64,000 nucleotides of DNA from an uncultured Pelagibacteraceae bacterium. Its GTDB lineage: Bacteria > Pseudomonadota > Alphaproteobacteria > Pelagibacterales > Pelagibacteraceae. Shown here in pieces: positions 16,807 to 20,107 of this stretch (positions are counted from its first letter, which is position 1; each line of letters starts with the position of its first letter). The position numbers and the translations under genes are program-made. The stretch lies in contig CACLWW010000005.1 in assembly GCA_902610755.1 (NCBI GenBank), forward strand, positions 194 through 64,193, read 5' to 3'. The notes below the pieces were generated by a model. That model was not told the DNA's origin and ran no database searches. It saw nothing but the letters and a program-made list of their open reading frames with translations.

Positions 16807-17418
16807 TTGATTGAACAATCTATTATACTCTTACAAATTATCTTCATAGATATTATTCTTGCAGCGGACAACGCGATTATAATTGGACTAATAGCAGCTA
16901 ACTTTGTTCCTAAACACAGAAAACAAATTATATTGTGGGGTGTTGCAGGTGCTTTAGTTTTTAAAGTTATTTTTGCTGTATTTGCAACCTACTTGTTTAA
17001 ATTTTATTTTATCAAAATTTTAGGTGGTTTACTTTTAGTTTGGATCGTTAATGATTTAAGAAAAGATCTGTTTGAGATCAAAAAAATTAAATCTCCAACC
17101 AAGGTATCAAAACAGCCCTCATACATACAAAGTGTCTATAAAGTTCTTTTTGCGGATATAACAATCAGCTTCGATAACGTTATTGGGGTAGTTGGTGCTG
17201 CAAAAGGAAATTTTGGATTTATGGTTTTTGGTTTGGTTTTATCAGTCGTTTTGACAGGTGCTCTTGCGACTTACCTTGCAAACTACATTCAAAAACATCT
17301 ATGGATCGCTTATATAGGTTTGGCTTTTATTTTAATTGTAGCCATTCAATTAATAATTGGTGGTCTTGTTGATTTAGAAATACTGAAGGTAGCCGAAGAT
17401 TTTAAAAAGTATTTCTAA
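16807..17418 (+). CDS. TerC/YjbE family membrane protein
   Basis: DIILAADNAIII, ADITISFDNVIGV; TTG start after an AAGGA RBS. Confidence 0.85.
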   Translation: MIEQSIILLQIIFIDIILAADNAIIIGLIAANFVPKHRKQIILWGVAGALVFKVIFAVFATYLFKFYFIKILGGLLLVWIVNDLRKDLFEIKKIKSPTKVSKQPSYIQSVYKVLFADITISFDNVIGVVGAAKGNFGFMVFGLVLSVVLTGALATYLANYIQKHLWIAYIGLAFILIVAIQLIIGGLVDLEILKVAEDFKKYF

Positions 17419-18580
17419 TTTTTTTTTCAATAAATTCAGCTCTTAATATTGTAATCAATATAATTGCTATTAGAGGAATACAGATGATATTCATTAACTT
17501 CCAATTAGTCAAAACTAACAATATACCTGCTGATAAACTTCCTATTGCGTGTACTGAATAAACTACAAAATCGTTTAAACCTTGAGCTTTAAACTTTTCG
17601 TGCTCTTTGTAAGTTGTTACCAGAAGACTTGTCCCTGATATGAATAAAAAATTCCAGCCAAACCCAAGAAAAATCAGAGCAATTAAATAATTAAAAAAAG
17701 TTTGGTCAAGTAAACTTAAGACTATTGTTACACCATAAAGTAACAGGCCAACATACATAATTTTGCTATGTCCGAATTTCTTTATCAAATTTCCAGTTAT
17801 TAGGGATGGTAAAAACATTGATGCAACATGCATCTGAATAACAAAACTTGTCTTATCTAATGACATATTTTCCATTACATGCATGCTTATTGGAGTAGCA
17901 GTCATCAAAAAGGTCATTATTGCATATCCAAATGCACTTGCCACCATTGCTTGTAAAAATCTAGGTTGAGAAATAATTTCAAAATAGCCTCTACCAACAA
18001 AACTTATATCTTTTTTTTCGATTGTATTGTTTTTGTAAAATAAAAAGAGAATAGCTGGCAGAAACATATACACCGCAAGGGATACATATGAACCAACATA
18101 TAATTGTTCTGACAAAAAGTTTTTTGTTAAATTTGCTGTGCCTGGACCAATAAATGCAGAAACTATACCTCCTAAAAGAATTATTGAAATTGCTTTCGGT
18201 ATTTTCTCTTTATCAACACTTTCAGCTGCAGCAAATCGATATTGATGAGTAAAAGCCATACCAACCCCAATAAAAAAATTTGCAAAACAAAATAAAATAA
18301 AATTCTGTGACATAACTGAATATGCGGCTAATAACGAAACTAAAGAATTAGAAATAGCTGCAATAATAAAACCTGTCCTTCTTCCTAATAAACTCATTGT
18401 TTTGGTTGCAACTATTGCTCCCAGTGCGATACCAACAACAGATATTGACATTGGTAAAGTTGACAAAGATTTCAACGGGCTAATTTGTGATCCAATAATA
18501 CCACTTAGAAAAACTGTTACCGGCGCAGCTGTAAAGCTAAAAATTTGACTAAAAAAAAGTATGAATAAGTTTCTGTTCAT
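17402..18580 (-). CDS. MFS transporter
   Basis: 12 TM segments, LGRR, YRFAAAE, GFGWNFLFISGT, KAQGLND. Confidence 0.87.
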   Translation of the reverse strand: MNRNLFILFFSQIFSFTAAPVTVFLSGIIGSQISPLKSLSTLPMSISVVGIALGAIVATKTMSLLGRRTGFIIAAISNSLVSLLAAYSVMSQNFILFCFANFFIGVGMAFTHQYRFAAAESVDKEKIPKAISIILLGGIVSAFIGPGTANLTKNFLSEQLYVGSYVSLAVYMFLPAILFLFYKNNTIEKKDISFVGRGYFEIISQPRFLQAMVASAFGYAIMTFLMTATPISMHVMENMSLDKTSFVIQMHVASMFLPSLITGNLIKKFGHSKIMYVGLLLYGVTIVLSLLDQTFFNYLIALIFLGFGWNFLFISGTSLLVTTYKEHEKFKAQGLNDFVVYSVHAIGSLSAGILLVLTNWKLMNIICIPLIAIILITILRAEFIEKKIRNTF

Positions 18581-18639: not shown

Positions 18640-19335
18640 TCAAACTTTTTCGTATTCAAAGTTTTGGGTGGTCTCGTTAACTTGTATTTGAACAGCTCCA
18701 TTACTTAAATGAAACTTTCGAGCCATTTCTGTGAGTGGTGATAAAGTAATTAGCCGATTTAAATGATGTGTTTTTTTAATTAATTTGAATACCTCTTTTA
18801 CGATTAATTTACCTCCACCTCTTTTTTTTGACCATACTGTATATGCAATTGCTATTTTTCCTACTTGATAGTCTCTACGGATACTTTGAAGAAAAGCATC
18901 TTTGCTCATCATATCTAATTCTTCAACACTTTTTGGTATTTCATTAGTAAAAGCAAAACACATTACAGCATGAATTTCACCTTTGTATTTTACTCCATAA
19001 ATTTTTCTACCATAACTAGTTCTAAATTTATTATCTAACTCAGGTCTAACAGGATCCTCGTTTGTATTACATTTTTTAAGCTCAATAATTTCAGCTCCTT
19101 TAATCCAGTCAAAAAGATTATCTATATTTTTTGAGATAATCTGTTTATTTCTTCTGATTCTAGCTTTAATCCTAGGTTTAAACGTTTTAGAACTTTTCGA
19201 ATTATCGTTTTTTGTATATTTAGAAACTAATTGTTCTTTTACAGTTTGAAGAACTTCCTTAGTGTTTTTTGTGGCACTATTTTTAATATATTTGGAAACT
19301 AATTTTTGCTTAACATTTTTAAAAATTTGTCTCAT
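18640..19335 (-). CDS. Hypothetical protein with a GNAT/malonyl-CoA-decarboxylase-like C-terminal domain and a basic repeated N-terminus
   Basis: 231-aa ORF 1 bp after proC; motifs DPVRPE, AIAYTVWS, TLSP, FHLSNGA. Confidence 0.6.
   Translation of the reverse strand: MRQIFKNVKQKLVSKYIKNSATKNTKEVLQTVKEQLVSKYTKNDNSKSSKTFKPRIKARIRRNKQIISKNIDNLFDWIKGAEIIELKKCNTNEDPVRPELDNKFRTSYGRKIYGVKYKGEIHAVMCFAFTNEIPKSVEELDMMSKDAFLQSIRRDYQVGKIAIAYTVWSKKRGGGKLIVKEVFKLIKKTHHLNRLITLSPLTEMARKFHLSNGAVQIQVNETTQNFEYEKV
19186..19326 (-). repeat. Degenerate 72-bp (24-aa) tandem duplication inside the CDS
   Basis: VKQKLVSKYIKN versus VKEQLVSKYTKN, 24 residues apart. Confidence 0.7.
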
Positions 19336-19336
19336 A

Positions 19337-20107
19337 TCAATTTTTTTTCAACCTTTTTAAGATATCACTAAGAGTTTTGTCAGTCGACTTATAAAATTTG
19401 AATTTTTTAAATAATTTAACACCTTGTTCATTTAATCCTCCAGGTGTTTGAGAATTTTTTACCAAAATTGATAAATCTTTTTCAGAATTTTTTTGTGCGT
19501 TTTCAGAAAGTGCAACAAACAATGAAGTAATATAATTTTGAGCATTTTCTCTTTTAATCCCTTTTAAAATAAGCCATCTTGATAAAGTATTTAAAAATTC
19601 GTAGAATGGCGCCATCATTCCAGATGTTGACCAGAAATTAAGAGATTTTTTTTCATTATTTATTTCAATAACCGTACCTAAGTGAGAAAAAAATTTTTTT
19701 ACTTTTTTATTTGGTGGAAATATTGGAACTGGACCTTTTCTTAAAGATATTGGTGGCAAAGGAATTGCACGAACAATATCTTTATTAATTTTAGTTAATT
19801 TTTTTAATACTGGAAGTTGTATTGTTGAAATAAAGCTAATAATGACTTGTTTTTTTTTAAAATTTAGTTTTCTGATGATTTGATTACCAACCTTTGGCGT
19901 AACAGCTAAAAAAACCCAGTCTGATTTATCGATTATTAGCTGGTTGTCTTTTTCAATTTGAATTTTTTTATTCTTTTTTCTTAAAAAAGAGGAAATTTTT
20001 TTATTCCGTTCTGATAAATAAATTTTTTTAAACTTTAATTTCGACCCTAGGATGCCAATAACTACGGCTTTTGTAATTTCACCAGTTCCAATAAATCCTA
20101 ATTTCAT
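19337..20107 (-). CDS. proC: Pyrroline-5-carboxylate reductase family protein
   Basis: GFIGTGEI, LAVTP, QTPGGLNEQG. Confidence 0.8.
   Translation of the reverse strand: MKLGFIGTGEITKAVVIGILGSKLKFKKIYLSERNKKISSFLRKKNKKIQIEKDNQLIIDKSDWVFLAVTPKVGNQIIRKLNFKKKQVIISFISTIQLPVLKKLTKINKDIVRAIPLPPISLRKGPVPIFPPNKKVKKFFSHLGTVIEINNEKKSLNFWSTSGMMAPFYEFLNTLSRWLILKGIKRENAQNYITSLFVALSENAQKNSEKDLSILVKNSQTPGGLNEQGVKLFKKFKFYKSTDKTLSDILKRLKKN

Follow-up and report, generated by a model that had tools for sequence, protein, structure and literature searches.

Malonyl-CoA decarboxylase (MCD; MLYCD/MatA) is an enzyme of ~435-490 amino acids in total, combining a helical oligomerisation domain (MCD_N, PF17408) with a catalytic domain of the GNAT fold (PF05292), as in the structures 2ygw, 4f0x, 4ksa, 4ksf and 4ks9. 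In the human enzyme, Ser329 and His423 form the catalytic dyad, and Tyr456 hydrogen-bonds to the catalytic His and positions it. Phe288, on strand β4, is strictly conserved and has been proposed as a cradle for the leaving CO2, and the helical insert between strands β5 and β6 (α5-α7) is poorly conserved even among MCDs (PMC3701320). Here we describe a protein of 231 amino acids, encoded by an open reading frame (ORF) at 18640..19335 on the minus strand of a 64,000-nucleotide stretch of DNA (the window) from an uncultured Pelagibacteraceae bacterium. The genome is a Pelagibacter-type (SAR11) assembly of 0.87 Mb in 39 contigs, 74% complete. The protein is almost certainly a homologue of the MCD catalytic core, and is called mini-MCD below.

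Other described proteins also decarboxylate malonyl thioesters or share the fold. The GNAT-like decarboxylase domains of polyketide synthases (PKSs) and of saxitoxin synthesis (CurA GNAT_L, 2ree; GphF, 6mfc; SxtA, 7uci) use a Thr/Ser-His dyad to decarboxylate a malonyl-type thioester without cofactors; they sit in megasynthases and act on substrates bound to acyl carrier protein (ACP). The classical GNAT N-acetyltransferases (RimI, 5isv; PseH, 4xpk; Naa50/60) have the core β-α fold, a pyrophosphate loop of the form R/Q-x-x-G-x-G/A, and a general-acid Tyr on the helix after β5. The malonyl-ACP decarboxylases MadA/MadB (PF09500) are also small and bacterial. Their active site, which uses an Asn, lies in a hot-dog fold, and MadA's GNAT domain has no decarboxylase activity (PMC8666670). 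A MadA/MadB identity for mini-MCD was rejected, the hot-dog fold being unrelated.

The catalytic domain of mini-MCD, of ~155 amino acids, occupies residues ~76-231 (18640..19110, on the minus strand as are all the window features described here) and is homologous to that of MCD. It has the motif order of MCD, namely HPV/DPV, xYS/TxxS, a glycine-rich CoA loop, TLSP, FHLxNGA and NY/FxY. The dyad and the Tyr that anchors the His would also be common to the two proteins: the candidate residues are Ser199 (codon TCA, in TLSP, 18739..18741), His209 (CAT, in FHLSNGA, 18709..18711) and Tyr228 (TAC, in NFEY, 18652..18654). The CoA pyrophosphate-binding loop, S169-KKRGGG-K (18811..18831), aligns to the motif-A region of MCD and presents the GNAT loop as KRGGGK, with both G173 and G175 conserved. 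Two parts of MCD are missing. There is no match to MCD_N, and residues 1-75 form a basic tail, whereas the canonical SAR11 MCD has MCD_N. The insert of 3-5 helices (α5-α7) between β5 and β6 is also absent, so that Ser199 and His209 are 10 residues apart, compared with ~77-94 in MCD.

Against Pfam, the best match of the window protein is MCD (E=0.0034, residues 124-213); a phmmer search with this single sequence against the PDB gave no match. The family to which it belongs is large, with more than 8000 close homologues in a word-indexed search and 588 clusters at 50% identity in an exhaustive one. Its distant members are mostly 140-180 amino acids long and align to query residues ~90-229. A profile made from an alignment of 48 diverse members has as its top PDB matches five MCD chains: 4ksa (the best, 2.9e-6), 4ksf, 4f0x, 2ygw and 4ks9. 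In this alignment TLSP falls on TLSP, ~67 residues of MCD are then skipped, and FHLxNGA falls on FHLGNGA; the Ser-to-His spacing in the alignment to 4f0x reproduces the human value of 94. Individually, 26 of the 48 members match PF05292, some of them above the Pfam threshold (best E 6.5e-9). Against 16 aligned canonical MCDs, drawn from genomes of Alphaproteobacteria and SAR11, hhalign gave a probability of 95.8% (E 6.8e-9) across 98 columns, the match stopping exactly at TLSP. The block after the insert scored 94.3% (E 1e-7), with FHLxNGA on FHLxNGA and NFEY on NYLY. The His-to-Tyr spacing is 33 in the canonical SAR11 MCD, as it is between human His423 and Tyr456. Given these conserved spacings and aligned motifs, Ser199, His209 and Tyr228 are taken as equivalent to human Ser329, His423 and Tyr456.

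Both members of the dyad are invariant among the 48 family members, together with Y165, G175, T197, A205, N212 and G213. Tyr228 is conserved in 47 of them, and is one of a set of positions that are at least 90% conserved (the others being D94, P95, R97, C126, P134, W168, G173, F208, N225 and E227). The ratio of nonsynonymous to synonymous substitution rates (dN/dS) in the catalytic domain is ~0.10, indicating strong purifying selection. Compared with MCD, the family has invariants of its own, which are DPVRP, Cys126, Trp168 and NFEY. Judged from the alignments, it would form a separate, minimal branch within the MCD lineage, outside PF05292 as that family is curated. We keep it apart from PF05292 because it has no MCD_N, no insert, a variable equivalent of Phe288, and these separate invariants.

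The structure prediction leads to the same place. An AlphaFold2 model built with a 70-sequence alignment has a mean predicted local distance difference test score (pLDDT) of 87, rising to 94-97 across most of residues 81-231. The secondary-structure elements follow the order of a GNAT domain, with three helices of lower confidence in front. A Foldseek search of the PDB returned MCD for all of the best 15 matches (1.7e-7 to 1.2e-5), with generic GNATs next. VIA-align, an independent structural aligner, was run against 48,161 chains, and its best matches were the SxtA decarboxylase (Z 14.8) and human MCD (Z 14.8, root-mean-square deviation 2.3, 147 residues aligned, 24% identity), followed by the GNAT-like decarboxylase of GphF (14.1) and CurA GNAT_L (13.9). 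All four are cofactor-free malonyl-thioester decarboxylases. A structure search of BFVD found generic GNATs only. The sequence-only reading of this ORF had pointed out AIAYTVWS, ITLSP with Ser199, FHLSNGA with His209, their spacing of 10 and the basic tail, and had proposed a GNAT fold related to MCD with the MCD motif order and the insertion dropped, a reading that would fail if the fold did not match or the Ser and His were not conserved among homologues. The strings are present in the ORF as described, and the structure searches, the profile alignment and the family alignment bear out the reading on both counts.

The distribution of mini-MCD among SAR11 genomes gives a further clue as to its function. 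The canonical MCD gene (mlycd) has been reported to vary in its distribution between genera of the Pelagibacteraceae and to be under strong purifying selection (ratio of nonsynonymous to synonymous polymorphism, pN/pS, 0.019; PMC12636525). In a sample of 121 genomes from this bacterial family, the mini form occurs in 30, a canonical MCD (~436 amino acids, above the Pfam cut-off) in 38, and the two together in none; the tally includes an unpublished genome (G068) with a broken canonical MCD, and the conclusion does not depend on it. Applied to a sample of 301 genomes of the order, the mini-MCD family profile, a more sensitive probe, found the mini form in 161, including 114 of 200 in the window's genus and 37 of 60 in a second family (f189). 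The corresponding numbers for canonical MCD are 80, 66 of 200, and 0 of 60. The window's genus, taken as 201 genomes including the window's own (G000), divides into 113 with the mini form only, 65 with the canonical form only, 22 with neither and a single genome with both, compared with ~38 double carriers expected under independence. In several genera neither gene is present, and the function must therefore be dispensable in some lineages.

The family profile cross-matches canonical MCD ORFs in whole-genome searches, and two apparent double carriers (G391 and G028) were rejected because the "mini" match was the canonical ORF itself. Weak PF05292 matches in another genus (g2; G117 and G077), considered as a second divergent paralogue, were likewise discarded as chance matches to a biotin-ligase ORF. 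In the single genome with both genes (G427), the mini copy (L326:1501-1945; G427:C1:1307921-1308365) is frameshifted in an A8 run at the codons of the CoA loop, has no basic segment and no start, and has DPDRP in place of DPVRP and NFGY in place of NFEY. A DNA tree of gcvP from 31 genomes taken in list order, which represents one gene in a recombining lineage, requires at least three changes of the canonical state and at least five of the mini state, giving at least three independent reciprocal switches between the two forms. Among independent pairs that differ in both traits, none changes in the same direction and two or three change in opposite directions. On balance, it appears that mini-MCD functionally replaces canonical MCD in SAR11.

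The family as a whole is mainly viral. A tblastn search with two family members against 50,697 phage records gave a single match (52% identity), in Pelagibacter phage Mosig, a 141-kb member of the Kyanoviridae that infects HTCC1062; the gene (Mosig_00145, annotated as hypothetical) lies between thyX and a gp59-like gene. The cultured cyanophages among the same records have no mini-MCD gene by tblastn. IMG/VR gave 42 loci at 47-72% identity, on contigs of up to 148 kb. We also searched with a DNA pattern back-translated from the invariant motif T-L-S-P-x-T-x-x-A-x-x-F-H-x-x-N-G-A, including the short Ser-His spacing. This found at least 119 stretches in a collection of genomes from 185,579 species and at least 120 in IMG/VR, and all 239 of the listed matches are true homologues. 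T4-like phages of aquatic habitats carry the family in abundance. For the deep representative proteins, the likely origin was deduced from the IMG/VR and genome motif matches. The nearest ESM Atlas clusters are mostly viral and unnamed.

Pelagibacter, Pelagibacteraceae or SAR11 account for 114 of the 119 listed genome matches, and the remaining five are on short contigs of metagenome-assembled genomes (MAGs) labelled Verrucomicrobiales, Polynucleobacter, Pirellulales, Rickettsiales and Beijerinckia. Because each of these copies (L109, L111, L116, L169 and L192) pairs with viral sequences in the tree, L109 being near-identical to an IMG/VR sequence, they are probably phage DNA that was mis-binned. 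The cellular copies are uniform (101 of the 119 listed have 70-80% identity to the query) and are 170-230 amino acids long, whereas the listed viral ones are diverse, spanning 31-74% identity with a median of 39%, and run to only 130-190 amino acids. The sequence-only reading had mentioned short relatives in marine T4-like phages and had suggested a minimal acyl-CoA enzyme that might be phage-derived. Such relatives are found in Mosig and in at least 120 IMG/VR contigs, cellular copies are almost confined to Pelagibacterales, and the fold, the conserved dyad and the nesting among phage sequences described below all support that suggestion.

In an unrooted tree of 86 sequences, the 12 cellular copies form one clade (Shimodaira-Hasegawa-like approximate likelihood ratio 97), which lies inside a larger clade (starred in that tree) with 27 viral sequences; the Mosig group comes next. 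In a FastTree phylogeny of 121 sequences rooted on canonical MCD, the basal lineages are all viral and the Pelagibacterales clade is deeply nested. The wide viral diversity, the single narrow cellular clade and its nested position favour transfer from phage to SAR11, and the SAR11 gene is likely to be of phage origin.

Two IMG/VR contigs of 36-40 kb (L002 and L003) carry 214-amino-acid copies that are nested in the cellular clade, as sister to L132; these are either misclassified SAR11 DNA or a recent capture from cell to virus. It is worth adding that one assembly (G460, 94% complete) has two full copies of mini-MCD, L325 and L329, on contigs 1 and 2, which could reflect a duplication, strain heterogeneity or a co-assembled cell.

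Taken together, these results make it moderately probable that mini-MCD is a phage-derived minimal MCD which substitutes for canonical MCD in SAR11. The stand-alone GNAT-fold domain would bind acyl-CoA through its glycine-rich loop, and the Ser199-His209 dyad, with Tyr228 holding His209, would decarboxylate a malonyl thioester to an acetyl thioester as in full-length MCD. The family would have diversified in large T4-like aquatic phages; one phage lineage would then have entered Pelagibacterales, acquired a basic segment at its N-terminus, and come to stand in for canonical MCD in those SAR11 lineages that lack the canonical gene. That the protein is an active malonyl-thioester decarboxylase is, in our view, probable.

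Several observations pull the other way. The Pfam match of the window protein scores 17.5 bits, below the gathering cut-off of 23.2 for MCD. The equivalent of the CO2-cradling Phe288 is Ala164, and this position varies across the family (A17/F17/P12). Ordinary N-acetyltransferases begin at Z 13.7 in the VIA-align ranking, ~1 Z unit lower than the best match; this gap is inside the tie range of the aligner, and therefore the fold alone does not settle the function. The exclusivity of the two genes is phylogenetically clustered, and the paired test (p 0.25) has too few pairs for significance. The frameshift in the G427 copy, lying in an A8 run, could be a sequencing error. The rooted tree was made with FastTree only and has a very long outgroup branch, which makes the root tentative. 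Finally, viral relatives with 64-68% identity to the window protein sit in an operon of radical-SAM, carbamoyltransferase, epimerase and DegT genes, and a GNAT in such sugar operons is usually an amino-sugar N-acetyltransferase.

The alternative that survives best is the same decarboxylase chemistry on another substrate, such as malonyl-ACP (as for CurA, GphF and SxtA), methylmalonyl-CoA or another carboxy-acyl thioester. Three of the best four structural matches act on ACP-bound malonyl or methylmalonyl groups, and these domains are similar to mini-MCD in size and fold (Z 13.9-14.8) and have the corresponding dyad. The variable Phe288 position could alter the acyl pocket, and a homologue of the FabI enoyl-ACP reductase is adjacent to mini-MCD in 12 of 114 Pelagibacterales loci. 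However, the sequence homology is specifically to MCD, with 24% identity compared with only 8-12% for the PKS and saxitoxin domains, and mini-MCD differs from these in being free-standing with an intact, conserved CoA pyrophosphate loop. Its exclusivity with canonical MCD also speaks against a different substrate, as does its surroundings, since no PKS or ACP genes were found near mini-MCD in the window or in the 114 loci. We consider this alternative unlikely, though worth keeping in mind.

The second alternative is that mini-MCD works as an acyl-CoA-dependent N-acyltransferase, perhaps on an amino sugar, using either acetyl-CoA directly or malonyl-CoA with its decarboxylation, and that its resemblance to MCD reflects shared ancestry only. 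It has the fold, with classical GNATs at Z 11-13.7 and a sequence similarity of ~10%. Five of the 48 family members give weak matches to Acetyltransf_1 (PF00583; best E 0.0076), although the window protein itself has none, and one ESM Atlas cluster is auto-named GNAT acetyltransferase. The strongest support for this view comes from the viral clade L033-L040 with L043, together with L217, which has 54-68% identity to the query over the domain; all motifs are retained in the members inspected (L035, L039, L043 and L217). On two IMG/VR contigs of this group the gene lies in a conserved operon (L035:1131-11562 and L217:2158-13578) whose genes are co-directional. Three or four radical-SAM/SPASM genes and an unknown gene are followed first by the mini-MCD member and then by a NodU/TobZ-type carbamoyltransferase, an NDP-sugar epimerase/4,6-dehydratase, a DegT aminotransferase and another unknown gene. 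The remaining loci of the clade also have repeated radical-SAM paralogues upstream. By its gene content the operon looks like a tailoring pathway for an amino sugar or other small molecule, which would normally need an N-acyltransferase, and in this respect the context of some phage relatives does resemble the amino-sugar N-acetylation operons of classical GNATs.

Against this, the general-acid Tyr of GNATs is replaced in mini-MCD by His209, there is no conserved general-base Glu, and Ser-His-Tyr is the signature of a decarboxylase; the best matches in both sequence and fold are decarboxylases. Most phage copies are found not in sugar operons but in modules for replication and nucleotide metabolism of the T4 type, with a gp41-like DnaB helicase directly upstream in 12 loci, and with a gp46-like SMC ATPase, a gp47-like phosphoesterase and ThyX among the other neighbours. 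The 148-kb viral contig also has ribonucleotide reductase, a 2-oxoglutarate-Fe(II) oxygenase and an endolysin. In other close viral clades the surrounding genes are unrelated ones (glucosaminidase, segE, thyX/gp59). An N-acyltransferase would moreover leave both the exclusivity with canonical MCD and the decayed copy in G427 unexplained, and on this evidence we regard it as improbable. What seems to be constant across these contexts is the conversion of a malonyl thioester to an acetyl thioester, with the use made of it differing by context; in the sugar operons, it is possible that mini-MCD acts as a decarboxylating acetyl donor for sugar tailoring.

A non-catalytic remnant of the GNAT fold, serving as a CoA sensor or as a structural or regulatory protein with a basic tail that binds nucleic acid or membrane, would suit the basic segment of no assigned role and the lack of a conserved operon, but is very hard to reconcile with strong purifying selection, with a dyad, anchoring Tyr and CoA loop that are invariant across 31-100% identity, and with phage copies that have no basic tail.

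The tail itself has two parts. Residues 1-80 contain 22 Lys and Arg compared with 5 Asp and Glu. The part next to the domain (KPRIKARIRRNKQ...NLF, 19111..19188) is specific to cellular copies: it is found in all 12 of those compared and is absent from phage copies. The cellular copies all carry K-P-R-I-K-A-R-I-R-K-N-K-Q...NFFxWVKGAELVEL, and the phage copies begin just ahead of W-x-K. This basic segment has a dN/dS of ~0.26. The Lys-rich extreme N-terminus (19189..19335) is poorly constrained, with a dN/dS of ~0.88 over the first ~50 residues, from few pairs with saturated dS. In the window it contains an in-frame tandem duplication of ~24 codons, KQKLVSKYIKNSATKNTKE / KEQLVSKYTKNDNSKSSKT (beginning KQKLVSKYIKN and KEQLVSKYTKN), which is a single copy in relatives. 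Given this ratio and the duplication, the protein may be able to do without its extreme N-terminus, or part of that stretch may not be translated. One relative (L051) duplicates the KPRIKARIRK motif instead.

Upstream of mini-MCD in the window is proC (pyrroline-5-carboxylate reductase, 19337..20107; NF005063, E=1.2e-90), whose TGA stop at 19337-19339 is separated by one base from the mini-MCD ATG at 19335. Downstream, 59 nucleotides beyond the ORF, is a major facilitator superfamily (MFS) transporter (17402..18580). A scan for promoters and terminators round the gene gave nothing informative. The sequence-only reading took mini-MCD to be coupled to proC. The adjacency is real in the window, but as a clue to function it was rejected: proC is adjacent in only 5 of the 114 Pelagibacterales loci, the neighbourhood of proC itself varies among relatives, and in 11 relatives examined the 1.5 kb around mini-MCD contain neither proC nor the MFS gene, DUF2805 or glutaredoxin. 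Genes adjacent in the 114 loci include SOUL (29), TauE (24-28), polynucleotide phosphorylase (14), the FabI-like short-chain dehydrogenase/reductase noted above, a protein of the metallo-β-lactamase fold (11) and MFS (4). A short-chain acyl-CoA regulator of the ScfR/RamB type is within 3 kb in 28 of the loci and adjacent in 14, and hints at a function in acyl-CoA metabolism; it is the sole recurrent functional hint in the cellular context.

Mini-MCD is thus found at several different sites, which fits acquisition as a mobile gene. Canonical MCD in the same genus has agxt-like, enolase-type, ldhD-like, HIT and SulP neighbours, and is not in an operon of the matABC type. Replacement of canonical MCD in situ was rejected, as none of these neighbours flanks the mini copies of the loci compared. 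In one genome of the genus (G041, L076:5915-12617), canonical MCD lies by a class-V (agxt-like) aminotransferase, an enolase-superfamily gene and a 967-amino-acid FAD/FeS oxidase resembling D-lactate dehydrogenase. The genes mlycd, agxt and ldhD have been listed together as offshore-specific and highly selected (PMC12636525), and the arrangement suggests that these gene types belong to one genomic island.

The mini family has no name in the public annotation examined: NCBI gives "hypothetical protein", the Atlas clusters are unnamed, the window protein has no match in NCBIfam, PHROGs gives only weak matches to families of unknown function, and the literature searched does not describe it. If it is what we propose, it is the smallest natural MCD, with ~155 residues and no oligomerisation domain, and would be a clean system in which to study cofactor-free thioester decarboxylation on the GNAT fold. 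The case looks like transfer from phage to host followed by replacement of the host enzyme. A bolder version, which is plausible but on which we would not quite stake an even wager, is that a stripped-down MCD that evolved in phages has repeatedly displaced the ancestral full-length enzyme in SAR11, the most abundant bacteria of the ocean, in which case the "absence" of mlycd from many SAR11 lineages would reflect xenologous replacement, with no difference in metabolism. Within phages it would be an unrecognised auxiliary metabolic gene, draining host malonyl-CoA so that fatty-acid synthesis stops or, where it lies in the radical-SAM/carbamoyltransferase/DegT operons, acting as a decarboxylating acetyl donor in amino-sugar tailoring. 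Canonical mlycd has been reported as a strongly selected gene that separates coastal from offshore SAR11 genera (PMC12636525). Given that over half the genomes of the window's genus carry the mini form, this coastal/offshore contrast in the pangenome needs to be read again if the mini form provides the same activity, and malonyl-CoA and lipid metabolism would join the processes that phages may reprogram.

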